DNA of 64,000 bases, from positions 4,975-68,974 of the forward strand of contig JALWUI010000063.1 in assembly GCA_027082775.1 (NCBI GenBank), written 5' to 3'. The notes below the pieces were generated by a model, which was not told the origin of the DNA, did not search any database, and was given only the letters and a program-made list of their open reading frames with translations. Source of the stretch: Candidatus Kapaibacterium sp. Lineage in GTDB: Bacteria > Bacteroidota > Ignavibacteria > Kapaibacteriales > WFXC01. The translations under genes and the position numbers were made by a program. The first letter of the stretch is position 1; the number at the start of each line of letters is the position of its first letter. This document shows positions 17,682 through 56,823 of the stretch, in pieces.

Positions 17682-19046
17682 ATGATGACGCAGCAACGCC
17701 GGGATGGAGGAAATTTTTTTGTCGCTATCGCTCTTGCTTTATTGCCAGTGCTGATCGCTCCTGTATGGGCGCAGCCGGACGATACGGTGTATGTGCAGAC
17801 CAACAAGCCGCAGCCTACCTTTTCACGGTACTATCACTGGAAGCAGGCTGCGTATTTGTGGACGGTCAGTGGGAGCGGCGTTTTTGGTACGATCGTTGGA
17901 GGTATTGAACTCACCGCCGATGCCCGGTTCTCGCTGGTCAGTTTCGCAGGCTTACCGCAATATCCGAAATTGCCACTGGAGGATAACGGATGGCAGGGAC
18001 AGGCTTTTTGTAGTATTACTCCTGCTGCCTGTCGGATCTTTTTTGCAACCAACGCGCGAGTTGACCGGAACTTTACCCTCGAAGATATGCAACTGGACGT
18101 TGCAGATTCGATGAAAAAGTATCGATTTATTCCGGAAAATGACACGTACAATCCCCAGCATGTGTACACGCGCACTGTCTATGGGAACGACGTCAAAGCG
18201 CAATTTCTGTACATCGATCGGTATGGCGAGGCAAATAACCAGTACTACTTTGACAATACGGCTGTATTTCGAGTGGTAATTCAGCGCAAGTCGCCTGAAC
18301 TGCTGGTAATCCAGCCCAATCCCTATCGCATTTTGAACGATGGTCCACCAAATACGATTCCCAACACCGTTTTTCGAGAAGAAGTACTCAACTTTGGCCA
18401 GGCGCCCGTTGGGGGCGGAGCAACGATTCAATTTCGCCGGATTTTGAAAAATCGAGGATTGGAATCATTGCGGATTCGTCAGATTGTGGTAGCCGGGACA
18501 AACATCGCCGACTTTGCGGTGCAGCGAACCGATGGTGCGCCGCTGACGCAAACCACTGATTTGCAACAGTGGCAGGATTCGGTAGAGTTGGTGTTCCAAT
18601 TTCAACCAACCAGCGTGGGAGCAAAACAGGCAGAGGTGCTGGTTTTCTGTAATGATCCCACGCAAAATCCCGGCGCTGGAGAAACCTACTTCCGCTTTCT
18701 GTTGCAGGGTGAAGGGGTCCAGGCGCAATTGTCGGTGCTGCCGGAAATCGACTTTGGAGATGTGTGGGTTGGACAGCAAAAAGACACGACGCTGGTCATT
18801 ACCAATATTGGTAACACGGCAGCGACCCTATTGCAGTATACCGGTGTTGCTGATCCATTCTTTCTGACCGACCCGGTGGATACGAATCAACCGCCGCAGC
18901 CGCCGGCAGCGCTGGATCCGGGACGGTCGGATTCCCTGCGCATCGTTTCCGCCCAGCGCAGAAAGGACGAGTGCGGGATACGCTGCGAATTGCTGCAACC
19001 AATACCTCGCCGTATTCGGTGGTGCTGCGAGGACGGGGATTGCTGA
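17682..19046 (+). CDS. Secreted protein with repeated Ig-like (DUF1573/choice-of-anchor-like) units; probably the N-terminal portion of a larger gene that continues in the next ORF
   Basis: Signal peptide MMTQQRRDGGNFFVAIALALLPVLIAPVWAQ and repeated DFGxV..G...tl.I.N.G motifs. It overlaps the next ORF by 76 nt in a different frame. Confidence 0.5.
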   Translation: MMTQQRRDGGNFFVAIALALLPVLIAPVWAQPDDTVYVQTNKPQPTFSRYYHWKQAAYLWTVSGSGVFGTIVGGIELTADARFSLVSFAGLPQYPKLPLEDNGWQGQAFCSITPAACRIFFATNARVDRNFTLEDMQLDVADSMKKYRFIPENDTYNPQHVYTRTVYGNDVKAQFLYIDRYGEANNQYYFDNTAVFRVVIQRKSPELLVIQPNPYRILNDGPPNTIPNTVFREEVLNFGQAPVGGGATIQFRRILKNRGLESLRIRQIVVAGTNIADFAVQRTDGAPLTQTTDLQQWQDSVELVFQFQPTSVGAKQAEVLVFCNDPTQNPGAGETYFRFLLQGEGVQAQLSVLPEIDFGDVWVGQQKDTTLVITNIGNTAATLLQYTGVADPFFLTDPVDTNQPPQPPAALDPGRSDSLRIVSAQRRKDECGIRCELLQPIPRRIRWCCEDGDC

Positions 19047-21277
19047 GTGCTGCGAAAATCTGGTATCGCTGGCAGTTTGCAGATTCCCTGCGGGATACGA
19101 TCGATTTTGGTCAGGTATCGGAAGGAGAGCAACGAATCCGGGCTTTTACCATTCGGAATCTGGGGAATGTCCGCCTGACGATCCCGGAAAAAGTGGTGCC
19201 GTATTACGAAGTGGTGGACATTATCCCCGGCTCCAAAGATGAGTTTGTGGAATTGTTTCAGTTAGGCTGCGATACCTGTTTTATCGATACCCTGACGCCG
19301 TATTACGATAAGCAGTTCGCTTTTCTGTACGACGGAACGCTGACGTTCCCGATTGGCAAAAAGGCGGTGCGATTACGCCTGAGCGTGCGACAGCAGGATG
19401 ATATTAGTAAGATAGTCGCCCAAAAAGAGTTTGTGCTGATCGCCGAAAAAATTCCCGTGCGGCTCAGCGTTGCTCCAGCGGAGCAGGATTTTGACTCCGT
19501 ATACATCCATCGAACCTCGCCACCGAAGCTGCTGCGGTTGATGAATATTTCGAAGCAGCACGCCATCTGGATTGATACGATTCTGTTTATCGGTGGAAGT
19601 GTTGCCGGCGAGTTTCGGATTGCCAGTGGCGATTATCAAATTCAACTGGCACCGGAGGATTCGCTCGGATTGCCCGTGGTCTACCAGCCAGCAGATCGAG
19701 GGTGGGACACAGTGCGGTTGATTGTCCGCTACCATTCGGTGATCAACGGAAACCGCCGGGATGATTCGGTAACGGCGATCCTGCGAGGAATTGGGGTGGA
19801 ACAGCGGTTGCTGCTGGAAGCAGCCGTTAGCGGCGGCATTCCCCCGGAACCCTTCGAGGTACGGCGAGGGTTAGCCGTTGATACGATTGACGTAGGAGCG
19901 GTGCGGGTTGGCAGAAGTCAGAGTATTCTGGCATTTGTTCGCAATCTGGGCAATCTTGTCGTCCATCCTGCTCAGACCTTTTTCTATGTGCTGGAAGAGC
20001 TGACACCCAATGCCCTGCTTCACTATCAGGTGGTCTCGCCGCACGATTCGAGCCTGGCGATTGGGCAGCGCGATACAGTGCATTTGCTGTTTCAACCGAA
20101 AAGTCCAGGGCAGCACGCTGTACGCTATGTGCTTTCCAGCAATGTTCCTGATCGCATTGGAACAGCACCCGATTCAATTCGCCAGTGGAGTTTTGTAGTG
20201 GTAGGGCGGGGAATTCGCCCTGAAGTTATGTGGAGTCAGCAGGCAGTGGATTTCGGTGATGTTGTTGTTCTGCAAAACTGTCCTGATGGGATTGTGGAGC
20301 GCTCGGTCCGGCTGACCAACGCTGGAGATGCTCCGGTTCTCATTGTTGCTGCAGTCATTGTGCCCAATTCAGGCGTCTTCACTTTGCAGGGAATGTACGT
20401 TGGAAAGACGGTCGAACCGGGAGAGTACCTTGATTTCCCGATCCGGTTTGCGCCTCCGTCGGTTGGAACGTTTACCGCAGAGCTGGTGGTACATACCGAC
20501 GAAGCGTTTCCGTACAAAGAATACCGCATTCAACTGGAAGGGCGGGGCATTGCACCGCCTGTTGTCCCAATGCAGTTGCCAGCATTGATCCGCGTTCGCC
20601 CCGGACGACCCATAGCGCTGCCCATACGGTGGGCGACGCAGTCCTATGGCGACTTGCTGCTGCAAATTGATACGGTCGAATTTGCTTTGCGCTACAATAA
20701 AACCCTGCTGGAGTATCAGCGGTTTGAAGTTTTAGGCACCGCAGCAGAAAATGCAACGGTCGATGCACAGCAGACCCGGCTTCCCGGTGATCCCCAGGCA
20801 GTACTTGCTGTCCGGATTGCACAGCCAGATCCGCTGTTGTTGCGAGACACCCTGATCGTGCTGTGGTTCGATACCTTTTTGGGAACGCAGGCGTCGACAG
20901 AAGTGACACTCAATGACACGCGGGTTGTCGTGGATGAATGTGAAGGGGTTGTGGAGTTGCTGGCAGAAGGAGGCGCGGTGACCTTGGACTCACTCTGTGG
21001 ACTGGAGCAAAAGCTGGCACCGGTCGGGGCTTACCGTTTTCGGCTGCAAGCGGGACAGCATAATGGCACGTGGTCGGTCGAGTATGAAATTCCGTTCGAT
21101 ATTACGGTACAACTCGAACTCTTTACGCTCAATGGCATCAGGGTGTGGGAGTATCGCCAGTGGCATTCGTGGGCAGGACGGTATGTGGTTCCACTGCCAT
21201 CGGTGCCGCCGGGTGTGTACCTGTGTCAAATGAAAGCGGGAATTTTTTCTAAGACAGTGCTGCTGTGGAGGAGATAG
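18971..21277 (+). CDS. Large secreted protein with T9SS C-terminal sorting-domain-like tail
   Basis: Repeated DFGxV...I.N.G motifs and a C-terminus (VPPGVYLCQMKAGIFSKTVLLWRR) resembling the T9SS C-terminal domain (CTD). The start is GTG. Confidence 0.5.
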   Translation: MRDTLRIAATNTSPYSVVLRGRGLLSAAKIWYRWQFADSLRDTIDFGQVSEGEQRIRAFTIRNLGNVRLTIPEKVVPYYEVVDIIPGSKDEFVELFQLGCDTCFIDTLTPYYDKQFAFLYDGTLTFPIGKKAVRLRLSVRQQDDISKIVAQKEFVLIAEKIPVRLSVAPAEQDFDSVYIHRTSPPKLLRLMNISKQHAIWIDTILFIGGSVAGEFRIASGDYQIQLAPEDSLGLPVVYQPADRGWDTVRLIVRYHSVINGNRRDDSVTAILRGIGVEQRLLLEAAVSGGIPPEPFEVRRGLAVDTIDVGAVRVGRSQSILAFVRNLGNLVVHPAQTFFYVLEELTPNALLHYQVVSPHDSSLAIGQRDTVHLLFQPKSPGQHAVRYVLSSNVPDRIGTAPDSIRQWSFVVVGRGIRPEVMWSQQAVDFGDVVVLQNCPDGIVERSVRLTNAGDAPVLIVAAVIVPNSGVFTLQGMYVGKTVEPGEYLDFPIRFAPPSVGTFTAELVVHTDEAFPYKEYRIQLEGRGIAPPVVPMQLPALIRVRPGRPIALPIRWATQSYGDLLLQIDTVEFALRYNKTLLEYQRFEVLGTAAENATVDAQQTRLPGDPQAVLAVRIAQPDPLLLRDTLIVLWFDTFLGTQASTEVTLNDTRVVVDECEGVVELLAEGGAVTLDSLCGLEQKLAPVGAYRFRLQAGQHNGTWSVEYEIPFDITVQLELFTLNGIRVWEYRQWHSWAGRYVVPLPSVPPGVYLCQMKAGIFSKTVLLWRR

Positions 21278-21285
21278 GAGCGGTG

Positions 21286-22053
21286 ATGCGCATTGTTGGA
21301 GTAGTCTTTTTGCTGCTGGCTGCTATGAGCATCGCTCGTGCACAGGGATTTCAATGGACGCCTTCGGTGCGCCTGCCCTTTGAACATCCTCGGCTGTACG
21401 TGGGAATAGAGGGAGGAGCAGCTTTCGAATATCACTGGGGAGAGCTCCGAAATATGGAGGGATGGACATTGTGCGGCGTCTACCGGTCGGCGTATGGACA
21501 GCGGTGGAGTGTGGGAGCAGGCGCAGAGTACTGGGTTCGCCCTGATCGTACCATTGGCGGCATCTTCCGCTGGGTCCGTCGCCAGATTCGATTTACCCAT
21601 CGAACCGATCCAATTCCGCAGAAAGATTCCCTGGGTAATACGTTGCCGCCATTGGTCACAGAGTATGAGTTTGTCCCGATCGTGCAGCAACTGCAAATAG
21701 GGGCGCGAGTGAAACAGCGGCTGTTGATGCCCTATGCTTTTGTCACAGCAGAAGTGATGACCAGTGTGTTGCTGTCGTACGAAGCCACCCAAACAGAGCG
21801 TATCGTCAGCCCACCGGAGCGCCGCTTTGCCGATGGTTCCTTTGAACGAACGGTTGTCGCAACACCCGTTGCCCAACTTGCCACTTTGAACGTCGAGGCT
21901 GCCATTGGCGTCGGTGCCGACATTCCACTGATCTACGGCGTTTACGCCAGCCCTTCCGTACGACTTGCGATGCCATTCTTTCCAATAGAGCGGCAAAGTC
22001 TGTGGCGAGCTCTCAGCGTAAGCGCTACGATCGCAGTGTATGTTGGATTGTAG
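21286..22053 (+). CDS. Hypothetical outer-membrane beta-barrel-like protein
   Basis: Signal peptide MRIVGVVFLLLAAMSIARAQ; aromatic-rich C-terminal strand. Confidence 0.4.
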   Translation: MRIVGVVFLLLAAMSIARAQGFQWTPSVRLPFEHPRLYVGIEGGAAFEYHWGELRNMEGWTLCGVYRSAYGQRWSVGAGAEYWVRPDRTIGGIFRWVRRQIRFTHRTDPIPQKDSLGNTLPPLVTEYEFVPIVQQLQIGARVKQRLLMPYAFVTAEVMTSVLLSYEATQTERIVSPPERRFADGSFERTVVATPVAQLATLNVEAAIGVGADIPLIYGVYASPSVRLAMPFFPIERQSLWRALSVSATIAVYVGL

Positions 22054-22132
22054 CGCAATGCAGCAAAGAGCCGTTCGTCAATGCAAAACCTGTTGTGGTT
22101 TTTTGTTCACAAAAAATGGAGGGGTGAGTCCA

Positions 22133-22858
22133 ATGCAACGGAGTTTTCTCAGCCTGTTCGTTGCTTTCCTGACCGTTGCCAGCGCATTCGCACAGCCGAA
22201 ACTGGAAATCGTTGGCGGACCCGTAGTGAACTGGGGCACTGTGAACTCAAAGCAGTCGCCATTGAAAGCTAAAGTGAAAATTGTGAACACCGGCAACGAA
22301 GAACTGAAGATTTCCAAAGTTCGTCCCTCGTGTGGCTGTACCGCGACGTTGCTGGACAAAGACCTGCTCAAACCGGGAGATACGGCAACGATTGACGTGT
22401 CGTTGAATATCCGGGGACGTTCTGGCAGTGTGACCAAGACGGTGACGATTAGCAGCAATGATCCGAAACAACCACGGAAGGTGCTGTATCTGAAGGCAGT
22501 GGTGCGGGATCCTGTGACCATTTCTCCGCGATATTTTGCCTTCGGCAGTATGGAGGTGGGTAAACCGGCACGGGCACAGGTGAAAGTGCAGAACAACACG
22601 AAGGAAGACATTACTCTTTCCGATTTTAAAGCCAGCAACGGTTTGCAACTCAATGTCAAGGATCCAATGACCCTGAAAGCAGGGGCTTCTGCAATTCTGG
22701 TCGTCAAAGTGACGCCAACGAAGCCGGGACCCTTTACAGGGGTGGTAACATTCAAGACCTCCCATCCGGATTTTTCCAGCTTCCAGGTGATGGCGTATGG
22801 CAATGTGAAAAAGCCAGAGCAGTCGAAAGTCTTTGAAAAACCCAGCAGCAAGAAATAG
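22133..22858 (+). CDS. DUF1573 domain protein (two Ig-like domains), secreted
   Basis: Signal peptide; PSCGCT motif plus a second beta-sandwich unit. Confidence 0.75.
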   Translation: MQRSFLSLFVAFLTVASAFAQPKLEIVGGPVVNWGTVNSKQSPLKAKVKIVNTGNEELKISKVRPSCGCTATLLDKDLLKPGDTATIDVSLNIRGRSGSVTKTVTISSNDPKQPRKVLYLKAVVRDPVTISPRYFAFGSMEVGKPARAQVKVQNNTKEDITLSDFKASNGLQLNVKDPMTLKAGASAILVVKVTPTKPGPFTGVVTFKTSHPDFSSFQVMAYGNVKKPEQSKVFEKPSSKK

Positions 22859-24366: not shown

Positions 24367-24543
24367 CGATGACAGCTTTTTCACCGCTTTGTTATGTCCT
24401 AATTGCCCTACAAACCGCAAATTTGCAAATTCTGAAGCGACTGGCGATCAGCTTACGGCAAACAGCGGGAGAATAACGGCAAAATGATGGGCGATCCACA
24501 GCCGCAGACGATGCAGGATATGGGACCGGGAGCAACGCAAAAG

Positions 24544-26247
24544 ATGCGATCGGTGAAAGTAAGAGTGCTTCTGCTGGCGCTTGCGCTGGCACTGGGAGCA
24601 TGCCAATCGGAAGCGCCGAAGGCAATTCGGGAAGGAGGATTTTTTTACAATGAACCGGATGGATTGAATACGCTGGATCCGGCTCGGATGGGATATCGAG
24701 CAGCGATCTGGGTGGGGACCCAGCTTTTCAACGGATTGGTGGAACTGGATACCTCTGGCGCCATTGTGCCTTCTCTTGCTCGCCGGTGGACGGTGGATTC
24801 GACTGGAACGCGATGGACCTTTGTACTTCGAGACGATGTCTGGTTTCACGAAGATTCCTGCTTTGGAGCCCGGCGAACCCGGCGGGTCGTGGCTTCGGAT
24901 GTAAAGTTCTCCTTTGAACGTATTTGCGATGCCCGGACAAAGTCCACGGGAGTATGGGTGCTGCGGGATAAGATTGCTGGCGCTGCGGCATTTTTCGAAG
25001 CAACGGCGGCGGGGAAAGAAACACCGAAAGGAATCTCCGGCATTCGAGTGCTCAATGATTCTACCGTTGAGATTCAACTGGTCAAGCCGTTTGCTCCGTT
25101 TCTGGCGCTGCTGACTATGCCCTATTGCTTCATTGTTCCACGGGAAGCGGTGGAATTCTATGGCGAACGTTTTTTTCAGCATCCTGTGGGAACGGGACCG
25201 TTTCGATTCGGAAGATGGCGTGAAGATGTGGAACTGGTGCTCTATCGGAACGATCGGTATTTTGAGCGAGATGGGCAGGGACGCCAGTTGCCCTACCTGG
25301 ATTCCATCGTGGTCACTTTCTTGAAGGATACCAAATCAGAGTTTCTGTTGTTCCAGCAGGGAAAATTGGATTTTCTGAGTGCGATTGATCCGGCATTTCA
25401 GCCGCAGTTGTTTGATGAAAATGGGCATCTTCGGGCGGAATATCGACACTGGCAATTGTATCAGGCGCCAGCATACTCGATTGAGTACTACGGTTTTTTG
25501 CTGGATACGACGTTCGCTGCTGCCCGACGTCTTTCCTTTGCTCGTTCTCGCGCCCTGCGGCAGGCGCTGAACTATGCCGTGGACCGCGAAGCGCTGGTTC
25601 GCTATGTACTGCGGGGCAAAGGTATACCGGCACACTTCGGCATTCTACCACCGGGTTTCCCCGGCTTTGATTCGACCGTGCAGGGGTACCGATACAATCC
25701 GCAACGAGTACGACAGTTGTTAGCCGAAGCTGGATTCCCGGATGGCAAAGGCTTGCCGGAATTTACCCTGCAGTTAGGGCAGAGTGAGCGGACGATGGCA
25801 GTAGCGGAAGCGGTGCAGGAACAGTGGCGAAAATTTGGCATCCGGGTCAAACTCCGGCAGGTAGATTTTCCACAGCATCTGGAAATGGTGCGAACCGGTA
25901 AGTTAGCCTTCTGGCGGACCAGTTGGATCGCCGACTACCCGGATCCGGAAAATTTCTTAGCGCTTTTCTATTCGCCATTCTTTGCCCCGTACGGACCGAA
26001 CACCACTCATTTTGCTCATCCGGTGGTTGATTCGCTGTACGAGCGGGCACTGTCGCCGTTGTTGTCGCCCCAGCAGCGATTCCAGATATACCATCAGATG
26101 GAGAAAATCGTCTTAGCGGAAGCACCGTGGGTATTTTTGTACTATAACGTGATTCAGCGGCTGGCACAGCCGTGGATTCGGGGCTTTTTTGTTGATGGCA
26201 GCGATCGGTTGCTGCTGAAGTACGTGTGGAAACAGCAGGGGCAATAA
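24544..26247 (+). CDS. ABC transporter substrate-binding lipoprotein (family 5, peptide/nickel, OppA/DppA-like)
   Basis: Lipoprotein signal LLLALALALGAC; SBP-family-5 length and conserved blocks. Confidence 0.8.
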   Translation: MRSVKVRVLLLALALALGACQSEAPKAIREGGFFYNEPDGLNTLDPARMGYRAAIWVGTQLFNGLVELDTSGAIVPSLARRWTVDSTGTRWTFVLRDDVWFHEDSCFGARRTRRVVASDVKFSFERICDARTKSTGVWVLRDKIAGAAAFFEATAAGKETPKGISGIRVLNDSTVEIQLVKPFAPFLALLTMPYCFIVPREAVEFYGERFFQHPVGTGPFRFGRWREDVELVLYRNDRYFERDGQGRQLPYLDSIVVTFLKDTKSEFLLFQQGKLDFLSAIDPAFQPQLFDENGHLRAEYRHWQLYQAPAYSIEYYGFLLDTTFAAARRLSFARSRALRQALNYAVDREALVRYVLRGKGIPAHFGILPPGFPGFDSTVQGYRYNPQRVRQLLAEAGFPDGKGLPEFTLQLGQSERTMAVAEAVQEQWRKFGIRVKLRQVDFPQHLEMVRTGKLAFWRTSWIADYPDPENFLALFYSPFFAPYGPNTTHFAHPVVDSLYERALSPLLSPQQRFQIYHQMEKIVLAEAPWVFLYYNVIQRLAQPWIRGFFVDGSDRLLLKYVWKQQGQ

Positions 26248-29842: not shown

Positions 29843-30090
29843 GCGCGTACACTTCAGTGTCCATTCTTTGCCGGCTGAAGCCGGCGCTCCCAGTGTGCGT
29901 ATTCAACCATCCTCACAACATCCCATCCGTAGGGGCAACCCGGCTGGTCGTCCGTAGGGGCGAGCGCCGCTTCGCCTCTACACATCGGCCGGGAGTACGC
30001 GTCTCAGTGTGCATTCCTCTCACCCTAACCTTCTCCCAGAGGGAGAGGGGATTTCTTGCCGGCTAAAGCTGGCGCTCCCGATTGTGCGTT
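29843..30090. repeat. Hairpin-array repeat cluster C
   Basis: Hairpins GTACACTTCAGTGTCC, CCGGCTGAAGCCGG, GGGCGAGCGCCGCTTCGCC and CTCACCCTAACC..GAGGGG. It shares a ~80-nt module (29868-29950) with cluster D (34293-34385). Confidence 0.7.
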
Positions 30091-37265: not shown

Positions 37266-37308
37266 CGATGATCTCCTTTGTTGTGCTCACAAACAAATCT
37301 TGCAGTAC

Positions 37309-42659: not shown

Positions 42660-42819
42660 CAGTGCCGCCGGGGGCACAATACCCCCGGTGGTGGAATTCA
42701 GTCCCCGGCGTTTCCGGACATTTCGCGCAGGCTTGCACCACAGATAAGGAATAAGCGCCTACGCCAGTCGGCATCACCTCCGGCTCCACGCGCATACTTA
42801 CCAAAAACCGGCTATGTTC

Positions 42820-43310
42820 CATCGACCGGGAGCGCACACTCTTAGGTGTGTATCGTTGATCCTTATGCCGACTGAAGTCGGCGCTCCCAGTCGGCGCTCC
42901 CGGTAAGCGATCCCAACTGCTGGGAGCGCACGCTCTTAGGCGTGCATTGCCCTCACCCTAACCCTCTCCCAGCGGGAGCGGGAATTTTTGCATCTGTAGG
43001 GAGCGACTCGGCTGGTCGCCATCACCCGCACCCGTAGGGGCGACCGGCCGGTCGCCCCTACTACACATTTACGCCAGTGCCTCCTTTATCATCTGCCGGC
43101 TGAACCCGGCGCTCCCAGTTCAGTGCTTCCACCTACTGGGAGCGCACACTCTTAGGTGTGCATCTACTGGGGAGCGCACCCTTCAGCGTGCATTCACTGG
43201 GAGCGCACCCTTTAGGGTGCATCTTTGCCGGCTAAAGCCGGCGCTCCCAGAGGAGCGCACGCTTCAGCGTGCACCATCTCTGTGGTAGGACAACCCTCCG
43301 GGTTGTCCAA
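42820..43310. repeat. Hairpin-array repeat cluster F
   Basis: Units GCACACTCTTAGGTGTGT/C (3 copies), CCGACTGAAGTCGG, CTCACCCTAACCC..GGGAGCGGG, GGCGACCGGCCGGTCGCC, GCACCCTTTAGGGTGC and GGACAACCCTCCGGGTTGTCC. Confidence 0.75.
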
Positions 43311-43548
43311 AGCAATGCTTTGCTATCCACTGCTGGCGAAAGTCGACGCTCTCAGCCCTGAGGAAGGAAATAGAGCAGATGGCTTTTTCCATATGGAGGA
43401 AATCTTCGAGGCTTCGGGAAGAACCGTGCCCAGGTTCAGCGAAGGACGTATCCTAAGAGTGCCGATAGCGTGCCTTCCTTGCTTATGTCAGATTTCGATA
43501 GCTACACATCACGGAAACCCACGCGATGGCTGCTGCCCGTGAAAATCC

Positions 43549-47956: not shown

Positions 47957-48017
47957 CGTACAGCTCCTTTTATTTTTTCCAACACTGTTTTCAGACAGGA
48001 TATTGAAGACTGCCGGG

Positions 48018-48340
48018 AGCGTTGACCCTGAGAGCGCCGGCTTTAGCCGGCACGTTCATGCACCCTAAAGGGTGCGTTCCCAGTGAATGCACGCTGAAGC
48101 GTGCGCTCCCAGTGACTGGAGCGCCGACTTCAGTCGGCAACAACTTCCCTCCTTCTCTGGGAGAGGGTGAGGGTGGTGCACACCTCAGAGTGTGCGCTCC
48201 CAGGCGATGGAAACACCGACACTGAGAGTGCCCCACTGGGAGCGCCGACTTCAGTCGGCAATAACTAAACAGCAGGACAAGCCGCTGGCTTGCCCTGGAC
48301 ACCCCGGAGGGGTGTCCTACCACCGTAAATGCGCACTGAA
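48018..48340. repeat. Hairpin-array repeat cluster G (inverted orientation relative to D/E)
   Basis: GCACCCTAAAGGGTGCGTTCCCAGTGAATGCACGCTGAAGCGTGCGCTCCCAG is the reverse complement of the D/E module. Also CCGACTTCAGTCGG (2 copies), CCCTCCTTCTCTGGGAGAGGGTGAGGGTGG and GGACACCCCGGAGGGGTGTCC. Confidence 0.75.
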
Positions 48341-48447
48341 GGGTATGCTCCCGATAGATGCGCCCCAAGGGCGTGCTCTCATCTGAATTCACCCTGGAAT
48401 GTCCACTGTTCATCATAAGGGATCCTATCGCTATTGAGCCCAGTACA

Positions 48448-51375
48448 CTACCGGCGCACGAAAAACGGCTGGACTACCGTTGTGGTTCCATACCGGAACT
48501 GGCACACATACATCCCATTGCTCAGCATCGGGAGTACTGGCTGGAAGCAGCGCTGTCTTATGTCCACGTGCTGTTTCCAGAGCAATCGCATTTGTGCATC
48601 GTAGATCGATACGGTCGCTGTGCCGCTGCTTTGCGGTAGCACACTCCAGCAGATGGTAAAGCGCCCATCGTTGACTGAAGGATTGATAGAAAGGTCAAAA
48701 GCTGGGTAATCTCGATGCTCTGCCACTTCTGCTGGCGTCTCTGCGCGCTGAAGCGGAACATACCACAGCCCCGGATGGTACGTTGTGGCGGGATCATCCC
48801 ACTGCGCCTTTGCTGGGAAAAGTTCTACGACACAGGAAGAATCAGTAACAGGCACCAGCACATCATTTGCTTTGCCATCCAATCCGATCAGATGAATCTG
48901 ATCATCATTCGGTGTCCAGCCAGCAATCGCCGCTCGACGGCGTATGCGCCTATCCCAGGACAACTGGTAGATCCGGGTTTGGTAGCTCCGATCGTTGTTT
49001 TCCATTGTATCGATACGGATCAGACACCAGAGTCCCGAAGCAGTCAGCGCCTGCGGCACAATCCACCACTCTGCTTCTACTGGTTCAGGAAAACTCCATT
49101 GCCGGATGACACGCCGGGTTGTGAGATCATAAGCCGTTATGGTGTGGATCTTTTCATTTGGAGCCAGACCGACAATTTCCGTCCAGACCAGGGTGTTGCC
49201 GAAAAGGCGAGCGCGGTGAATCGCCGCCGAAGGAGCTTGACTAACAATTCGCTGCTCTGTCCGGGATCGGTAATCAAAGACAACCAGCGTGTCCGGCTTG
49301 TCAACTCGCCCCGTATCCGGTAAGCGCCATACTACCCGACCTTTTTGATGGTCGAGAATATCGTAGAACCGGGCATCAGCGATGGGATGGTTCCATTCTG
49401 CTAACACGGTATAGGGATGATTGGGTCCCCATACAACTATTTGCACCGAATCACTGCCCCGGTAACTTCGTCGCCACGCCATCACGCTGCCATCCAGATG
49501 GAAATCCTCATTGGTCCAGAGCGTAAAGGTGGGGCGAAGGGCAAGGGATTGAATCGATCGGGTATCGACATCGCCGACATAGAGCGTATCTCTATACTCA
49601 TCGGTCCACCAGATTCGCCGGTTGGCAACGCCGAGCAAGTGGAGGCGGGAGGGGAAGGCGGTATGCGGTTCCCACTGCCACCCATACCGGAGCCGGTCAT
49701 CTTCATAGTTGATGAAAGCAGCAGTCGAATCCTGTACCCATCCTGGCAGTTGCTTCACCTGGTGGTCGCTGACAACCCACGCGATACCGGTGTTACCAGC
49801 AACGACATCGCCAAGTGTCAGCGCTCGTTGCGGTGGGTTGATACTGTAAGCATTGACCGTATCATAGAGCACGCCGGCAAACAACAGCGATTGCACCTTC
49901 CAGTTCCGAAGGTCCGCTCGGTAAAGCAGACAGAAAATGTCATCACCCCGCGTTGGAACAACGCTGGCGAACCGTGCATTCCCCCACAAAAGAGCTACAT
50001 TCTGTGCATTGCTGCCGAACAATGCGCCATTCCCCAGAAAATGTGCTGAATCCAGACTTCGGCTCTGGAGTTTACAATCGTACAGTTTCTTTGTGCCAAG
50101 ATTGACCACAACATAGCTACACATCACATCCGATGGAGTCAGTGAGGGTTCGGTCAACGCAATGCCAATGACTTTTTTCGGTACGGTGTGCAACACCTGC
50201 TTTACCACCACCGAATCCTGGCGTTCCAGAAAACGGAGAATTCGGGCAGCAGCACTGAAGTCCACGTATGCAGCTTCGTATTCTGACAAAAGCGCGATGT
50301 CCGTTGAGTCAAACTCAGTTTCGTAAGCCGAAAATGATTTGTCAGCAAACGGTCGGCGCTTGAGCTGATACTGAAATCCCCATCGGGGATCCACATTCCG
50401 ATCTTGTACCCAGAGGGCGATCCAGAAATCCCGGACCAGCTCAACGAACGAGCGATCGGCACCCACCTGCCGGAGTGCAGAATCAATCCCGGCTCTGCCG
50501 GATAGCGGATTCTGCACAAGGTATCGTAAGAGTGTATCGCCGTACTGTTCCAGACAGTACTTGTAGAACAGCGCTGCTCGCCCGTAGGTTATTTCCGCAT
50601 CTTCTCTTGAAAAATCGGCAAACTGGAGAATTCCTCTTCGCTTGTAAGCTGGAAGCGCTGTCACGAAAGAGTTCACAAACTCATCCCACTGAAAGCCACA
50701 AATATATTCTCCCATCTGCGCCCGTCCTTCTAAGCTGAAGCGTTCTTCTTGCGGATCATATCGATGTTCGATCAGGTGAACCAGTTCGTGGGCAGCCGTG
50801 CCTGCGATTTCAGCAACGGTTCCGGTGCCAAAATTTCGCCAGTTCAGGTAGAGAATATTGCCCTTATTGCTTTTGTCAGTGTCCTTTTGATCCATCGGGC
50901 TGAACCATCCACGCGCAGCGTAGTTGACGTCTGTAACAAGATAGTGGACTGTATCAGCATTGCCCTGTGGGAATTGATTGGGTACAGTCCCAACCCATTG
51001 GTGCAGGAGCGTTCCAATTCCCAGATTGGGATTTTTTGATCCGTCAGGAGTTTGATTCGCCAGGAAATTGAGCAACGTGTCGACTTTCGGTTGAACAGCC
51101 GCATTGCCGGAGAGTGCTGTGTCGATCCATAGCTTGAAAGGGAAGCCACTGTACCCTGTCCGGAAAAGCTGAAAAGTGCGCCGCTGACGGAAGGATTGGG
51201 TAGTATCCACAGGATCCTGAACATCCACGTAGAAATTCCTCAGGGGACCATCCAAAACTTCCTGAATAAACTCAACCGGTTGCTGATATGCCTTCGAAAA
51301 GAAGGCAGGTTCTTGAGCAAAGCTGCTGATCGCGATCAGCAGTGCCAGTGTAATAACACCTTTAGGGATTCCCAT
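48448..51375 (-). CDS. 975-aa secreted putative zinc metalloprotease (HExxH) with T9SS C-terminal sorting domain
   Basis: Signal peptide MGIPKGVITLALLIAISSFAQEP; motif TAAHELVHLIEH; C-terminal CTD (MYVCQFRYGTTTVVQPFFVRR). Confidence 0.55.
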   Translation of the reverse strand: MGIPKGVITLALLIAISSFAQEPAFFSKAYQQPVEFIQEVLDGPLRNFYVDVQDPVDTTQSFRQRRTFQLFRTGYSGFPFKLWIDTALSGNAAVQPKVDTLLNFLANQTPDGSKNPNLGIGTLLHQWVGTVPNQFPQGNADTVHYLVTDVNYAARGWFSPMDQKDTDKSNKGNILYLNWRNFGTGTVAEIAGTAAHELVHLIEHRYDPQEERFSLEGRAQMGEYICGFQWDEFVNSFVTALPAYKRRGILQFADFSREDAEITYGRAALFYKYCLEQYGDTLLRYLVQNPLSGRAGIDSALRQVGADRSFVELVRDFWIALWVQDRNVDPRWGFQYQLKRRPFADKSFSAYETEFDSTDIALLSEYEAAYVDFSAAARILRFLERQDSVVVKQVLHTVPKKVIGIALTEPSLTPSDVMCSYVVVNLGTKKLYDCKLQSRSLDSAHFLGNGALFGSNAQNVALLWGNARFASVVPTRGDDIFCLLYRADLRNWKVQSLLFAGVLYDTVNAYSINPPQRALTLGDVVAGNTGIAWVVSDHQVKQLPGWVQDSTAAFINYEDDRLRYGWQWEPHTAFPSRLHLLGVANRRIWWTDEYRDTLYVGDVDTRSIQSLALRPTFTLWTNEDFHLDGSVMAWRRSYRGSDSVQIVVWGPNHPYTVLAEWNHPIADARFYDILDHQKGRVVWRLPDTGRVDKPDTLVVFDYRSRTEQRIVSQAPSAAIHRARLFGNTLVWTEIVGLAPNEKIHTITAYDLTTRRVIRQWSFPEPVEAEWWIVPQALTASGLWCLIRIDTMENNDRSYQTRIYQLSWDRRIRRRAAIAGWTPNDDQIHLIGLDGKANDVLVPVTDSSCVVELFPAKAQWDDPATTYHPGLWYVPLQRAETPAEVAEHRDYPAFDLSINPSVNDGRFTICWSVLPQSSGTATVSIYDAQMRLLWKQHVDIRQRCFQPVLPMLSNGMYVCQFRYGTTTVVQPFFVRR

Positions 51376-51694
51376 CTTTCATCCCTCCTGTTCTGTTGCA
51401 TTGCCCCATATTCAGTGCCCGGACTCGAAGGGCTCTTTTTTATCGTTTGTTCATTCCCCGAATTCTCTTTCAGGTCTTGACGCCTAACTCTTCCAGCATC
51501 AGAAATGCTGACCGGTGAATCTACCGCATTTTCGGATCCGAGCAAATTTACGTCGAAATTCCTTCCCAGCAAGGGAAAATTTTTGCAAATGTCCCGCAGG
51601 GGACAGGTGTTGATGATGATTCCTGCCGGGAAGCAAAGGAACGCTGGGTTTGAGGGTTCCCATAATTGACATTCCCCAAGTGTGGACACAATAC

Positions 51695-51762
51695 TGCAAA
51701 TTCACGCTACTTGCTGCCCGAATGCAATAGTGCTTTTCCCAACAAATGTTATTGTTTCAGCA
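51695..51762 (-). promoter_or_regulatory. Conserved upstream motif plus -33/-7-like promoter (copy 3), about 320 nt upstream of the HExxH protein gene
   Basis: Gene-sense sequence ...AACATTTGTTGGGAAAAGCACTATTGCATTCGGGCAGCAAGTAGCGTGAATTTG. A weaker related block lies at about 51545-51600. Confidence 0.4.
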
Positions 51763-51806: not shown

Positions 51807-53387
51807 CTACTGCGGCACCAGCTCGTGCCATTGAAGGAATTTCAATGCTGGCATTCGTCCGCTGCTTTCTTTCCACTGCTGCTGCCGCTTCTGTTGATAA
51901 TACTCCGTGATTGATATCCCCTGCACCTTGGCTTCCAGCCAGGTAACCAGGTCAAACTCGATCGATTCTCGTGCCAAAGCCTCTGAAAAGATGCGATAGA
52001 TGCGCTGGTAGAACGGCTGCTCCTCCGGCAGTCGATGTGCTGCAAAGGTGCTCGGCATCCGCTCTACTATACGTCGCACTGCACGTACCACCGGAACAAA
52101 AGCTGGATACTGCCGGACGAACCGGCGAAGACGCTCCAGTAACCGTTCCAACGCCTCAATGTCCTGCTGCTCCCAGGCAATGATGCATAAAAGGAGTCGG
52201 ACCACAAAGCCAATTTGCTGCAACAGTCGTTGCGAGGTATGATCGTAAGCGGCTTCCAGATACTGGCGGGCAAGGTCGTATTCCTGTAACCAGAAAGCGA
52301 TGCAGCCCAGGTGGTATAAAGCCACTTTGTAAAAATATGGATACTGTCGGCGATAGTGCTGCAGTATCTTTTCAACGTGCGACCGGTCATTGAAAATGTT
52401 GTCGAAGCTCCCTAATTCCAGAGCTAAATACAGGACGATGTTCAGATACAACATATCCATTTCGTTTTTGATTGCAGCATCCGATTGCTGCCGGAGCCGT
52501 ATAATTTCCGCAAAGCACCGCTCGACGATCGCTGCGTTTCGGGCTGCTGTTGCAGCAACGACCTGATTATGCAATGCACTGAAATATGCCGGTAAATAAA
52601 GGTGTTTTCGACTTTCGGCGATCTGGAAATACCGAAGAAGCTGTTCATAGCATTGCACTGCTTTGTCCGGTTGTCCCTGTATGTTCCACAGCAGCGCTTC
52701 GGTGTTCCACCGCAGAAATGGGATGGGAAACGGGTCTGCTTCATAAGCAGGAATCTTCTGGAGTTGCTCGATAACCATAGGAGCAACTGTTGCAGCTTCG
52801 GAACTGGAAATCCGAATTTCTCCTTCAACGTACCACGAATACCATCGAGCATTTAACAGAAGCAATTGCACATATCGTTGAGTCTGGTCCAGGGCAGTCT
52901 GCAAGTGCTCGAAACTCTTACGTAATTCCTCGTGATCCAGCAGTTGGAGGTTTCGATGCAGATGGTACTCAAGCTGTAGCGCCATTGCTGCCAGCTTTTG
53001 AATAGGATCACCAGCGGTATCGGCTGAGCGATAGGTTTTTGCCACAGCCTTTAAAGCATCGCTATCCTGCCTCCACTCAAAAGCAAAGCGAGAAAGAACC
53101 AGATCAAACAATATAGTACTTTGTTTGTCCTGTTGCATTAGCACGTATGCTCCGATCTGCAATACCTTGGTGTACACTTTATGCCGCAGTGCTCGAAGAT
53201 CTGTCTGAATTCCTTGCTGCTGGAGCGCAGAGCGCAACTGTTGATCGTCCCATTCTGGGTACTGCTCCAGAAGACTCAGAAAAGACTTTTCCACCTCCGT
53301 CAGTTGAATCCGTATTCCCTGCTTGATCCGCCTCCGCCACACTGGCGGCAAGGCGCGCAGGAGCTGATCCAGTTTGTGATCTGCCAT
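51807..53387 (-). CDS. Hypothetical all-alpha cytoplasmic protein, paralog 2
   Basis: Full-length similarity to 38015..39613. Start assigned to MADHKLDQLL by alignment with its paralog. A conserved element, CATAAA(T)TTAGCRAATTG, lies 35-45 nt upstream of both paralogs. Confidence 0.6.
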   Translation of the reverse strand: MADHKLDQLLRALPPVWRRRIKQGIRIQLTEVEKSFLSLLEQYPEWDDQQLRSALQQQGIQTDLRALRHKVYTKVLQIGAYVLMQQDKQSTILFDLVLSRFAFEWRQDSDALKAVAKTYRSADTAGDPIQKLAAMALQLEYHLHRNLQLLDHEELRKSFEHLQTALDQTQRYVQLLLLNARWYSWYVEGEIRISSSEAATVAPMVIEQLQKIPAYEADPFPIPFLRWNTEALLWNIQGQPDKAVQCYEQLLRYFQIAESRKHLYLPAYFSALHNQVVAATAARNAAIVERCFAEIIRLRQQSDAAIKNEMDMLYLNIVLYLALELGSFDNIFNDRSHVEKILQHYRRQYPYFYKVALYHLGCIAFWLQEYDLARQYLEAAYDHTSQRLLQQIGFVVRLLLCIIAWEQQDIEALERLLERLRRFVRQYPAFVPVVRAVRRIVERMPSTFAAHRLPEEQPFYQRIYRIFSEALARESIEFDLVTWLEAKVQGISITEYYQQKRQQQWKESSGRMPALKFLQWHELVPQ

Positions 53388-54012: not shown

Positions 54013-56823
54013 TTATCGAGCGACCACAAACGGGTATGTTACAACATCGCGTTCCAGATGTACCACCACCATATAGATTCCCGATGGTAGTGCCGGGATA
54101 CTGAGCGTGTAGCCCCCTGCTTTGTGGAATCCTTCAGCAAGAGCGGCAACAGTGCGGCCCATCAGATCGACGATGGCTATCCGGATCGGCTGTGATGCCG
54201 GTAAGTGGTAATGGAGTCGAGCACCTTCAACAACGGGAAGCGGTTCTATCCAGAGTTTCAGGGGCACCGAGCGCCTGGGCTGCATTCCCGTTGTTTCTTT
54301 GATGGATTCCGAAAGTGCAAACCGAATTTCCCGACTATTGGTACCAAGGTTGGGAATACTGTCGCCATCGGTATCAAGGACATATACCCGAACTTTTTCC
54401 AGCCCAGCAGTATCGTTGCTTTGTTCCCGATCGTGGAGATATCCTATCCACGGAATGCCTAAGGTCTGACCACATTCGAAGACACGCACAGCGTGCCCGC
54501 CTCGGGGATGTCCGGCCGAATCATACGAAAACACGATCTCTACGTCTTCGCCTCGCCGGATTTCATCGCAAATCCATTGCCAGCTTACCACGGCTCCGCT
54601 ATCATAAGAGGTAATGCCGCTACTGGTGAAGTTTCCTGGCGGCAGCGCCTGTCCCTGCGTTGAGTCTCCATATCCTCTTCCCTGATGCTTGTGAACTAAT
54701 GCATCCCGCAACCCACTCCGTGCTAAGTAGGCAAACTTCCCACGGAGCATAGGCTGGAACCATACCCCATAACCTGAATCTCGTCGAGGCGCGATACGGC
54801 GGGCCAAACTATCCAGCCATCCAACGATACTGACTGTGTCACCTCGTAGCCCGGGCCGATGAGCGTGTGGAATATTGAGTTCGTATCGGTTCTTTAGATA
54901 CTGCAAGCTGTTAGCAACCGCCATTGGAAAGCACTGATTCTTTGCTGCTTGAACATTTGTGTCGTTCGGTTGCGTAACTTTCCAGGAAAGTCCCGATGGA
55001 TCGAAGATGATCATATTCGGAGACGGTGGGACACCAATATGCGAGACCGTTCCTTCCCCCGCTCCTTCTGCATTCCAGACAACCCGATCCACAGGAAATG
55101 CCAATCGAGGTCCATCACCAAACGATGGTACAGGCTTGGGAGTAAAAATCAAGTAGCCTGACAGCGTGTCTACTTTTTGTCCATCCTCAGCTGCCAGAGC
55201 AAAGTACGTCACTACCTCCGTATCCGTGGAATCAACCCAGAGGTTTTGGACCACCCACCCAAGGTCCGTGAAAAGGTTGAGATATCCTCCCGAAAGATCA
55301 GCCGCTCCCGTCAGGGTAGGTCGATCAACACTGAGTCGTCCCCACGCCGAGAAAGGTTCCTCAATGCCGGAGAAGGAGAAATGCACCTGCTGGATCTCAA
55401 CGCCCTGTCCCGGTTCAACACGGTTCGGCGACGTGACGCTGAAGGACAGCGAGTCACTCCAGGATCCCCATGCGCCCGCTTTGTCTTCTGCCCGCACACG
55501 CCACCACCATTGTCCCGATGAGAGAGAAGCGATCCGAGGCACAGTAATGCTGTCAGGTTCACCACTGGCTACCCAGTCGGTCTGATACGTTCGCACATCC
55601 GTACCCTGCCACACTGCTATTTCGTAGCGTACGGAGTCACCGTTGGGATCTTCTCCGCGTACCACAAAGGTTGGCGTTGGTCCTTGCTGTGCAGCACTAT
55701 CGGGAGACAGCATCGCTGGAATCGACGGAGGAAAATTGCTGATGCTAAGCCGATACGCCTCTATTCTCTGCGATGTGCCATTGTATCCCTGTCCCACAAT
55801 CACGGTGCCGTCGGGGGTAATGGCAGTTGGAGTGCCAAGTAGCGAACTATCTTGTAGCAGCGCTGCATAGGTGTAGGAAAGATCCTCAAATCCTGTTTGT
55901 GCCGTCCAGCGGAATATTCTCTCTTCGCCGGAAGAAGCTATCCATCGCCCAAGGATTGTGGGATCGGAAGATCCCATCGAGGCAGTAGTGTTCGAAACAA
56001 CGAGAGCTTCGCTGGGTTTGATGTCATCGGGGAGAGGAAGCACATATACCTCTGCTGGTGAGTGCCGGAGATCCCATACTGCTGCTAAGGGGGTCAGGGA
56101 AGTGTCAGCCACAGCCCCAACGACGAACGTTCCATCTGGCGAAATTGCTCGCGCAAATGCATAGAGATAGTTTGCAGGAACAGGAAGTTGTTCCACAACA
56201 TAGCTATCTCCTTTCCGGCGCCATAAGAGAACGATGAACGCTCCTTTGTCTGTTCGGAGAATGCCGAGAATTTCATCACCATTTGCTGAAACATCTACAG
56301 CCTCAGCTTCACCATCTTTCGGTAAAGGTAGTTCCGAGAACTCTCCCATAGAATTCCACCAGCAAGCATGAGAGATACCGACAGAATCTACCCAGCTACC
56401 GACTATGACGCGCCCGTTTTGCGAGATGCTTCGGGCAATGGCATACCACGTTCCTTCTGGAACAGAAAGGGCAATGATTGTGTCAGCGCGGCGGAGAAAT
56501 GGTTGAAGATCATCGCCTTCCTCCGGAACGCCAATGCCTACCACCGTTTCACCATCTCCCGCGATATCGTACCCTTGAAGCTGGATCCACGAAGTGTTAA
56601 TTGGAGTATGTGACTGAGTACTGCTTTCCCACAGCGTTGTGAGAACCTGCATCAGTGTTGTATCGTGTGACTGCACCAGCACTTTGCTGCCGTCAGGAGT
56701 CAGAGCCAGAGCTCGGCTGGAAGCATATCCGGAAGAGGTTCCCAGCCAATCCAGATTTTGCGCGGCGAGAGAAGTTGTTGTCAAAAGTATCAATAGCCAT
56801 TTGGGGACAAGGTGCTGTTTCAT
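54013..56823 (-). CDS. 936-aa secreted protein with HAF-like and FN3-like modules and T9SS C-terminal sorting domain
   Basis: Signal peptide; degenerate ..S..G..vVG repeats; an FN3-like module similar to one in the HAF-metzincin protein (PNGDSVRYEIAVW...WWWRVRAEDKAGAWGSWSD); CTD (GIYMVVVHLERDVVTYPFVVAR). Confidence 0.55.
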   Translation of the reverse strand: MKQHLVPKWLLILLTTTSLAAQNLDWLGTSSGYASSRALALTPDGSKVLVQSHDTTLMQVLTTLWESSTQSHTPINTSWIQLQGYDIAGDGETVVGIGVPEEGDDLQPFLRRADTIIALSVPEGTWYAIARSISQNGRVIVGSWVDSVGISHACWWNSMGEFSELPLPKDGEAEAVDVSANGDEILGILRTDKGAFIVLLWRRKGDSYVVEQLPVPANYLYAFARAISPDGTFVVGAVADTSLTPLAAVWDLRHSPAEVYVLPLPDDIKPSEALVVSNTTASMGSSDPTILGRWIASSGEERIFRWTAQTGFEDLSYTYAALLQDSSLLGTPTAITPDGTVIVGQGYNGTSQRIEAYRLSISNFPPSIPAMLSPDSAAQQGPTPTFVVRGEDPNGDSVRYEIAVWQGTDVRTYQTDWVASGEPDSITVPRIASLSSGQWWWRVRAEDKAGAWGSWSDSLSFSVTSPNRVEPGQGVEIQQVHFSFSGIEEPFSAWGRLSVDRPTLTGAADLSGGYLNLFTDLGWVVQNLWVDSTDTEVVTYFALAAEDGQKVDTLSGYLIFTPKPVPSFGDGPRLAFPVDRVVWNAEGAGEGTVSHIGVPPSPNMIIFDPSGLSWKVTQPNDTNVQAAKNQCFPMAVANSLQYLKNRYELNIPHAHRPGLRGDTVSIVGWLDSLARRIAPRRDSGYGVWFQPMLRGKFAYLARSGLRDALVHKHQGRGYGDSTQGQALPPGNFTSSGITSYDSGAVVSWQWICDEIRRGEDVEIVFSYDSAGHPRGGHAVRVFECGQTLGIPWIGYLHDREQSNDTAGLEKVRVYVLDTDGDSIPNLGTNSREIRFALSESIKETTGMQPRRSVPLKLWIEPLPVVEGARLHYHLPASQPIRIAIVDLMGRTVAALAEGFHKAGGYTLSIPALPSGIYMVVVHLERDVVTYPFVVAR

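Follow-up and report, generated by a model that had tools for sequence, protein, structure and literature searches.

Is a dense cluster of genes for putative substrates of the type IX secretion system (T9SS) a polymorphic island, or a stable part of the chromosome in which such genes have gathered? The question is raised by a stretch of 64,000 nucleotides of Candidatus Kapaibacterium sp. (GenBank assembly GCA_027082775.1, contig JALWUI010000063.1, positions 4,975 to 68,974; hereafter the window, in whose own coordinates all positions are given). A preliminary description, made from the letters alone, had placed eight genes ending in T9SS C-terminal sorting domains (CTDs) between 19 and 57 kb, and had taken them not for scattered cargo but for an island of surface proteins or exoproteins that is polymorphic. 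Kapabacteria belong to Bacteroidota, a phylum in which T9SS is widespread. Our analysis recovered the same eight genes, and only a part of the variability was borne out. The locus is best explained as a chromosomal neighbourhood of Candidatus Kapaibacterium in which T9SS cargo genes have accumulated, partly by local duplication, and which is vertically inherited, syntenic among relatives and not mobile; we give this reading a probability of about 0.75.

The evidence that carries it comes from related loci. The gene order was identical from 24.8 to 63.2 kb in five related Candidatus Kapaibacterium loci, at 88-95% nucleotide identity (BLASTN). When amino-acid identities were measured against the closest metagenome-assembled genome (MAG; JALWJX010000004.1), the housekeeping genes gave 96-98.5%, and four of the cargo genes, both lipoprotein genes and one of two genes for tetratricopeptide repeat (TPR) proteins gave 95-98% (Table 1). 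The GC content was 0.49-0.57 across the window without a step, and no integrase, transposase or tRNA gene was found in 17-62 kb. Because of this synteny, and because there is no integrase, tRNA or GC step, we read the locus as a piece of conserved chromosome on which a few hot spots lie, and not as a mobile or wholly polymorphic island.

Table 1. Features of the window. TIGR04183 scores are in bits, for the whole protein and for its last 110 residues; identity is the amino-acid identity (%) to the closest MAG (locus L004, unless another locus is named).
Feature	Positions	Strand	Whole	Tail	Identity	Description
Cargo 1	17607-21277	+		16.0		choice-of-anchor-D/Ig-repeat protein; N-terminal signal peptide, weak type-A CTD
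Cargo 2	30288-34022	+	25.0	28.3	96.9	1244-aa choice-of-anchor-D Ig protein; at least 4 Ig domains, type-A CTD; NF012200 167.9 bits
Left flanking direct repeat	34174-34316	+				about 100-140 nt, REP-like hairpins; from repeat search and BLASTN
Cargo 3	34491-37265	-	26.5	31.4	71	signal peptide, about 7 HAF repeats (27-340), predicted metzincin (about 355-690), Ig-like module (about 720-830), type-A CTD
Module copy 1	37306-37368	-				TTGCATT-N16-TAAATTTG; 41 nt upstream of cargo 3; kept upstream of the L004 orthologue
Right flanking direct repeat	37417-37529	+				followed by REP-like hairpin array to about 37890
TPR paralogue 1	38015-39613	-			91	532 aa, cytoplasmic, all-helical; candidate regulator
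ECF-type sigma-70-family protein (putative)	39876-40571	-				starts at internal Met, 231 aa; immediately precedes TPR paralogue 1
Cys-rich secreted ORF	40824-41285	+				153 aa, signal peptide; GC 42%; in window-only segment
Cargo 4	41319-42659	+	17.7	21.3	83	446 aa; signal peptide, uncharacterised N-terminal domain, type-A CTD
Cargo 5 (HAF-462)	43549-44937	-	21.2	23.9	97	six clean 46-aa HAF repeats and a degenerate seventh, then type-A CTD
Cargo 6	45434-47956	-	33.6	37.9	95-98	BNR/Asp-box (Sortilin-Vps10-like) beta-propeller, type-A CTD
Cargo 7	48448-51375	-		18.7	85	predicted M30 (lugdulysin/hyicolysin-like) zinc metalloprotease (about 75-430), beta-rich uncharacterised region, weak type-A CTD
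Module copy 2	51692-51754	-				between TPR paralogue 2 and cargo 7 gene; 317-nt leader
TPR paralogue 2	51807-53387	-			95-98	526 aa from Met aligned with paralogue 1; 96% identical to locus L006
Cargo 8	54013-56823	-	20.3	24.4	95-98	HAF-like region (about 20-360), Ig-like module (about 365-465), module of about 390 aa (about 470-860), type-A CTD
Gly-rich (GGxGGxA-type) lipoprotein	57022-58668	-			95-98	...VSGC lipobox by reading; directly upstream of cargo 8, same strand; 97.8% identical to locus L006
Module copy 3	58735-58797	-				67 nt upstream of Gly-rich lipoprotein gene, which precedes cargo 8; kept in L006
DUF4397 repeat lipoprotein-like protein	59468-61399	-			95-98	internal Met start, ORF to 61477; Pfam DUF4397 79.7 bits, 4 stretches
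DUF1573/Ig small secreted protein	22040-22858	+				two DUF1573/Ig domains, Pfam DUF1573 99 bits; no CTD on tail; a neighbour of cargo 1
REP-like clusters	6757-6993, 11795-11987, 29869-30079, 34236-34314, 37479-37888, 42866-43272, 48030-48260, 61568-61820					

Sorting domains of the eight proposed cargo proteins

The last 110 residues of each protein were scanned alone with the CTD model TIGR04183 (cut-off 23 bits). It was the best or only NCBIfam match on all eight tails, five of which scored above the cut-off (Table 1), and three of the eight proteins also passed it at full length. Pfam PF18962 gave the same pattern on the tails, and no CTD match was obtained with two control tails in the TIGR04183 scan. 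A local hidden Markov model (HMM) was built from the five strong tails and run, with filters off, against the 560 six-frame open reading frames (ORFs) of at least 60 aa in the window. The three weaker tails were ranked 6th to 8th (cargo 1 was 6th and cargo 4 was 7th), each at its extreme C-terminus, and the next ORF had E=1.1. Since the local model recovered these three tails next and nothing else at E<1, we count exactly eight CTD genes in the window, three of them with sub-threshold tails, and no ninth; eight had also been counted from the sequence. A hydrophobic strand and then R or K closes seven of the eight tails. By inspection, all eight proteins, with cargo 1 read from 17607, began with a signal-peptide-like sequence in which a basic n-region and a hydrophobic core are followed by an A-x-A or AQ-like site.

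The gene of cargo 1 is interrupted by a 1-nt frameshift near 18944 (18936-18950), which splits it into the ORFs 17607-19046 and 18971-21277. The halves scored 56 and 78 bits with NF012200. Taken alone, the second ORF lacks a signal peptide, which lies in the first one, and its start falls within an Ig domain. When one base is inserted after 18944, a single ORF of 1223 aa is obtained, and the junction completes a choice-of-anchor-D-type Ig domain. Because the fused frame gains both the signal peptide and the completed Ig domain, cargo 1 really starts at 17607, and the eight genes span 17.6-56.8 kb.

The eight proteins have the build of known type-A T9SS cargo, such as the gingipains and other CTD proteins of Porphyromonas gingivalis and Flavobacterium johnsoniae: behind the signal peptide come one or more passengers, and the C-terminus is a beta-sandwich (about 75 aa) fitting TIGR04183 or PF18962. 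Their passengers, which are proteases, propellers and adhesin-like Ig-repeat proteins, are also usual in such a secretome. They differ from that cargo in the sub-threshold scores of three tails, in the R or K ending of seven, and in that the Kapaibacterium proteins are known from sequence alone.

A 607-aa protein near the start of the window (1954-3777), the only one there related to T9SS core components, combines three PD40 repeats with an OmpA domain. These building blocks also occur in T9SS PorE and in the CHU_0125 family, but the scores of the protein were far below both cut-offs: 130 bits with the PorE model (cut-off 600) and 176 bits with the CHU_0125 family model (cut-off 620). The neighbouring sequence reached outside the window held a ferredoxin-like gene and another DUF4397 protein, and no T9SS core gene. 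On a related contig, to the left of the position equivalent to the window start, the C-terminus of a 738-aa DUF4397 protein (L007, 8339-10555) is weakly CTD-like (E 0.0055 with the local HMM), and its gene could be a further cargo gene beyond the window.

Passenger domains and predicted peptidases

Two cargo proteins had been credited with HExxH motifs, and both motifs were found, at residue 543 of cargo 3 and at residue 196 of cargo 7. In cargo 3 the zinc motif is HELGHTLGLRH (543-553) and is followed by the Met-turn SVMNY (566-570); the HExxHxxGxxH residues, the Met and the Tyr were invariant across 45 relatives. None of the Pfam metzincin families reached its threshold, the best being Reprolysin_3 (20.6 bits; cut-off 22.4), with Peptidase_M10 at 14.9 bits (cut-off 24) and no match to M43. 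The proposed assignment to M10 or M43 is not supported by these scores, and a profile of the 45 sequences matched PDB entries of several metzincin families on the zinc helix only. These sequence features place the predicted catalytic domain among the metzincins, outside the thresholds of every Pfam family of that clan, and protease activity is predicted for it. Like the serralysins (M10B), the adamalysins (M12B) and archaemetzincin (M54), it has the HExxHxxGxxH motif with an SVMNY Met-turn and gives profile matches on the zinc-binding helices; unlike them, its likeness to solved structures extends over about 25 residues, and it is fused to an N-terminal HAF array and to a C-terminal Ig-like module and CTD. 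The metzincin family starts with a conserved calcium-binding-like motif, DxDxDGxxDxWE (residues about 355-385), which aligns to the calcium-binding segment of binary-toxin components of the C2-II and anthrax protective-antigen type (PDB 2j42, E 2e-4).

The module after the metzincin had been called FN3-like; Pfam fn3 gave no match. It is an Ig-like sandwich that is homologous to the corresponding module of cargo 8 (E 6e-14), and both show weak similarity to an accessory domain in PDB 4xed. Direct PDB searches with the three large cargo proteins yielded only this weak Ig-like match to 4xed and a TolB-like match in the HAF region.

TIGR02913, the HAF repeat model (cut-off 22.65 bits), scored 106.9 bits on cargo 3 and 120.6 bits on cargo 5, and the two proteins are 49% identical over 350 aa. 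Cargo 8, named as the third HAF protein, did not match TIGR02913 at E<0.01, and a local HAF HMM gave a weak match (15.3 bits, E 1e-4). Over about 340 aa, cargo 8 is nevertheless homologous to both other HAF proteins (BLASTP, 6e-20 and 3e-12), so that it is a diverged HAF relative although the family model fails on it. The HAF and HAF-like modules are probably beta-propellers. The TIGR02913 model was described mostly from Proteobacteria, often with PEP-CTERM tails, and we know of no function for the HAF repeat family. The Kapaibacterium proteins share with that family the tandem repeats of about 46 aa that fit its profile, and differ in the partners of the repeats, here T9SS CTDs and peptidase domains.

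The fusion of HAF repeats to a metzincin had been described as rare. HAF repeats were found in at least 2-3 of the 120 closest relatives of the cargo 3 protease domain, and the fusion is thus uncommon, but not unique. No hit of the homologue search exceeded 550 aa, and even the 923-aa query protein, although part of the collection, was not recovered; because long proteins are missed, the counts both for this fusion and for the cysteine-peptidase family described next are lower bounds.

A domain that had been overlooked lies in cargo 8. Its module at about 470-860, which had no Pfam or NCBIfam match, ends in a papain-fold cysteine-peptidase-like domain (about 560-860) with the residues Q-C, H and D. 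At least 28 related clusters from scattered taxa were found, and in the family alignment of the module Q62-C63, H209 and D230 are nearly invariant. The AlphaFold2 (AF2) model of the module (pLDDT 84, pTM 0.83) had as its best Foldseek matches in the PDB the staphopains, IdeS/Mac-1 and the cathepsins (E 4e-5, probability 1.0), and the top 11 matches were all clan CA peptidases (E 4e-5 to 1e-3). PDB matches of the peptidase domain at the sequence level were not significant. As modelled, cargo 8 thus carries a papain-fold (clan CA) cysteine-peptidase-like domain of a family that has no annotation, and its activity is predicted. The predicted fold (residues about 600-860; TM to target 0.57-0.62) and the Q-C...H...D order are those of the staphopains (C47), IdeS/Mac-1 (C66) and the papain-like cathepsins (C1), whereas the sequence identity is 9-13% and cargo 8 has an extra N-terminal sub-module of about 100 aa.

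Cargo 7 was below the Pfam M30 and NCBIfam thresholds when scanned alone. Its residues 75-430, approximately, have 976 relatives among 1.84 billion cluster representatives, and H196, E197, H200 and E216 are invariant in the family alignment. The family profile, with the window protein as its first row, aligned along 326 positions with lugdulysin (PDB 7bb8; E 1.8e-51), and also matched the solved T9SS CTD structures 8glj and 8glk. Por_Secre_tail was present in 34 of 48 relatives and a type-B CHU_C tail in 6, and 7 matched Peptidase_M30 (PF10460). By this profile evidence the predicted catalytic domain is an M30 gluzincin, with activity predicted. It shares with lugdulysin and hyicolysin (MEROPS M30; 7bb8; PF10460) about 330 aligned residues, with HExxH and the NEG-type downstream Glu invariant, and differs from them by about 450 extra residues of uncharacterised fold and a T9SS CTD in place of the Gram-positive export context. 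With the papain-fold domain of cargo 8 added to the two zinc proteases, the predicted peptidases of the cluster number three, each of another type. In both cargo 3 and cargo 8, which have different catalytic types, the predicted peptidase is coupled to a HAF or HAF-like array and an Ig-like module.

The BNR beta-propeller recognized earlier in cargo 6 was confirmed by Sortilin-Vps10 (PF15902; 134 bits), BNR (55.7 bits) and NF045728 (F510_1955 family; 199.5 bits, cut-off 175). The other passengers are the Ig-repeat arrays of cargo 1 and cargo 2 and the uncharacterised domain of cargo 4.

Candidate regulators and a shared upstream module

The two TPR proteins are 68% identical to each other. Five related clusters were found in 5.8 billion proteins, and in the searches run the family was restricted to Candidatus Kapaibacterium. 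Both paralogues align weakly, end to end, with the BT_2802 model NF058569 (41.5 bits, E 9e-11, for paralogue 1, and 25.1 bits), well short of the cut-off of 550 for membership in the BT_2802 (RusR) family, whose founding member is the putative regulator RusR (bioRxiv 10.1101/574913). An N-terminal helix-turn-helix (HTH) domain, suspected by eye, was not confirmed in the paralogues, the best HTH match having E 0.09. The AF2 model of paralogue 1 was mediocre (pLDDT 67) and its fold matches were generic TPR proteins, Rap/NprR among many; a Rap/NprR-like identity is neither supported nor excluded by such a model. With RusR/BT_2802 and the Rap/NprR regulators the paralogues share the TPR solenoid fold, a position next to exoprotease genes and the weak full-length BT_2802 alignment; they differ in that their BT_2802 scores are far below the cut-off, no HTH was confirmed and no gene for a signalling peptide was identified. 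Directly upstream of paralogue 1 lies the gene for the sigma-like protein of the extracytoplasmic function (ECF) type, which reached 45.4 bits with TIGR02937 (cut-off 42.9), has region-4 Pfam matches and is also present, as a 231-aa gene, in locus L002.

Exactly three copies of a promoter-like 63-nt module that contains TTGCATT-N16-TRAATTTG were found in the window (0 expected), all on the minus strand, and two of them are conserved in relatives (Table 1). The element TAnnTTTG resembles the Bacteroidota -7 promoter element. In a scan for sigma-70 promoters and terminators the number of sites was not above that in shuffled sequence. Each TPR paralogue gene is immediately upstream of one module copy and one zinc-protease gene. 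The leader that follows copy 2 (51376-51691, about 317 nt) is unusually long and contains a second TAAATTTG element at 51543-51572; it had no match in Rfam, and an Rfam scan of the long leaders found no RNA families.

The TPR paralogues, the sigma-like gene and the shared module suggest, from their arrangement, local regulation. A further proposal, which is compatible with accumulation in a conserved neighbourhood, is that the cluster is a co-regulated locus for extracellular proteolysis in which the sigma-like and TPR proteins would control the adjacent protease and lipoprotein genes via the 63-nt module, in the manner of the regulator-exoprotease pairs of other bacteria, and the products of which could feed nearby peptide uptake. 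The restriction of the module to sites upstream of cluster genes, its pairing with the TPR and zinc-protease genes, and the weak resemblance to the family of RusR would all fit, as would the Opp-type permeases (13937-15940) and the SBP_bac_5 protein (24484-26247) nearby. However, the DNA-binding domain was not confirmed in the TPR proteins, their fold search was generic and came from a mediocre model, and the module may be a strong housekeeping-type promoter that was copied along with the genes. Furthermore, the MAGs that lack the gene of cargo 3 still have TPR paralogue 1, and the peptide-uptake genes are scattered and on different strands. We regard co-regulation as possible, though tentative.

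Conservation, variation and meaning of the cluster

The variation among relatives is strongest in the gene of cargo 3. It is absent at loci L002, L003 and L005, where about 3.6 kb are replaced by about 95 bp, and in the comparison with L004 its divergence is mosaic: 48-72% identity in the HAF repeats, 78-98% in the catalytic domain, 52-58% in the Ig-like module and 88-96% in the CTD. Because the CTD is kept at 88-96% while the HAF repeats are at 48-72%, the CTD appears to be under purifying selection. At 90% clustering the cargo 3 protein is a singleton, whereas the other cargo clusters have 2-9 members, most of them 6-9; the cargo at 95-98% identity, both lipoproteins and TPR paralogue 2 fall into clusters of 5-9 members that come from several contigs. 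The gene is flanked by direct repeats with 95% identity over 100 nt (left copy versus 37431-37529, BLASTN). The MAG loci without the gene have a single copy of the repeat. This fits loss or gain of the gene by recombination between the flanking repeats, in either direction, but in the closest MAG, which has the gene, one copy only was detectable.

Two more sites are variable. The segment 40781-41376 (595 bp, GC 42%), which contains the Cys-rich ORF, has no counterpart in L004 or L005 and was found only in the genome of the window; the ORF had no match in family scans. The site 42716-43542 is occupied by an array of hairpins resembling repetitive extragenic palindromic (REP) units in the window, by about 60 bp in the closest MAG, and in other MAGs by the gene of a PEGA-domain lipoprotein of 135 aa (L002, 6713-7120; also in L003 and L005). 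REP-like arrays coincide with two of the three indel sites of the cargo cluster. Their hairpin units, GGGAGCGCACGCTTCAGCGTGC, GGGAACGCACCCTTTAGGGTGC and TGCCGGCTAAAGCCGGCGCTCCC, number about 38 in the window, where chance would give 0, and fall into eight intergenic clusters (Table 1). The stem variants preserve pairing (GCCGGC/GCCGGC versus GCCGAC/GTCGGC), and the arrays give rise to spurious ORFs, e.g., 47991-48416.

These observations bear directly on the proposal of a polymorphic surface or exoprotein island, in which the whole gene content would vary between strains, for example under diversifying selection by phages, predators or competitors. The proposal holds for the cargo 3 gene, which some MAGs lack, which is only 71% identical in the closest MAG and which forms a singleton upon clustering, for cargo 7 (85%) and cargo 4 (83%) when set against a backbone of about 97%, and for the Cys-rich and PEGA lipoprotein segments, which add two indel sites. 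It does not hold for most of the seven cargo proteins compared, nor for both lipoproteins and TPR paralogue 2, at 95-98% identity to the closest MAG, and the gene order is the same across all compared loci. The cluster is also interrupted by housekeeping genes. Choice-of-anchor-D cargo 1 and two small secreted proteins occupy 17.6-22.9 kb; they are followed at 23.1-29.8 kb by genes which family scans identified as an rlmI-like methyltransferase, SBP_bac_5, NlpC/P60, purK, DUF4269 and an ABC ATPase, and only from 30.3 to 61.5 kb are genes for secreted proteins densely packed. We therefore find island-wide polymorphism doubtful, and favour a conserved neighbourhood with hot spots. The Gly-rich and DUF4397 lipoproteins that had been counted within the island are both present, just beyond its 57-kb end; family scans gave no match for the Gly-rich one.

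The joining of HAF arrays to different catalytic domains, and the speed with which the array of cargo 3 diverges, allow a more far-reaching idea. The HAF array would be an exchangeable, fast-evolving module for target recognition, and together with switching by the TPR and sigma-like proteins it would make up a regulated, polymorphic system of extracellular proteases. If this were true, a recognition module would direct T9SS-secreted peptidases to particular substrates or cells. We consider the idea unlikely in this full form.

Several points weigh against accumulation of T9SS cargo in a conserved neighbourhood. Three of the eight CTD tails are below the curated TIGR04183 cut-off (16.0-21.3 bits), and eight CTD genes in 39 kb may be no more than their frequency across the genome would give by chance. 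No T9SS core gene was seen within the 64-kb window and the short related loci, and a literature search found no paper on T9SS in Kapabacteria. Cargo 1, given the frameshift in the assembly, may be a pseudogene or an assembly error. The first and the third of these points would be explained if the C-terminal beta-sandwiches had a structural role as Ig-like domains and the lineage lacked a working T9SS, the proteins being periplasmic or exported otherwise; FlgD_ig and DUF3244 indeed gave weaker alternative matches on some of the tails. We think this very improbable: TIGR04183 was the top match on all eight tails and at the very C-terminus, the CTD is the best-conserved part of the fast-evolving cargo 3, the relatives of cargo 7 mostly carry recognised CTDs, and T9SS is common in the phylum. 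Horizontal acquisition as a genomic island, for which there are local hints only (the 42%-GC Cys-rich segment and the direct repeats around the cargo 3 gene), is hardly credible and was rejected, since the GC content is even, 17-62 kb contain no integrase or transposase and no tRNA or att junctions, the sole tRNA of the window is distant (at 6617, i.e., 6.6 kb), housekeeping genes lie within the span and the MAGs compared are syntenic here at backbone identity.

To the left of the cluster the chromosome is ordinary. According to ORFs and family scans, the first 17.6 kb encode a PD40/OmpA protein, a cyclophilin, tRNA-Met, a type I restriction-modification (R-M) and toxin-antitoxin islet, holA, Opp-type permeases and murI; mtaB begins at 62.3 kb. 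At 6617-11951, tRNA-Met (6617-6691) is followed by the small defence-type islet, which contains a type I R-M specificity gene (7398-8216), a methylase gene (10074-11627), DUF4411 and an spr1629-like antitoxin/repressor; it is bracketed by direct repeats of 157 nt that are 92% identical (6810-6966 and 11795-11951). Directly downstream of cargo 1, and overlapping its stop codon, a 262-aa ORF (21265-22053) has a signal peptide and no family hits, and may encode an outer-membrane protein.

From the observed domain content, paralogy, synteny and pattern of variation, a scheme of secretion, protease activity and regulatory links can be inferred by analogy with studied T9SS. The eight cargo proteins would cross the inner membrane via Sec, an outer-membrane translocon would recognise them by their CTDs, and, once the CTD has been removed, they would either leave the cell or stay anchored at its surface. 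The passengers would then act as a toolkit for extracellular binding and proteolysis, made up of three predicted peptidases, three HAF or HAF-like modules, two large Ig-repeat proteins, a BNR propeller and one passenger of uncharacterised fold, with variation concentrated in the HAF-metzincin gene between REP-like direct repeats.

Clustered and partly duplicated T9SS cargo genes are a known phenomenon, here seen in an unstudied lineage; since they are expected in Bacteroidota, the value of these results lies in annotation and hypotheses and not in a new mechanism. For Kapabacteria, a Bacteroidota lineage of hot springs and sediments that is uncultured and has no secretion biology on record, they provide a verified list of likely T9SS substrates, and they place one hypothetical protein known by its HExxH motif in the M30 lugdulysin family. 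The papain-fold family without annotation, together with the HAF-peptidase fusions, may help to explain what HAF repeats do.

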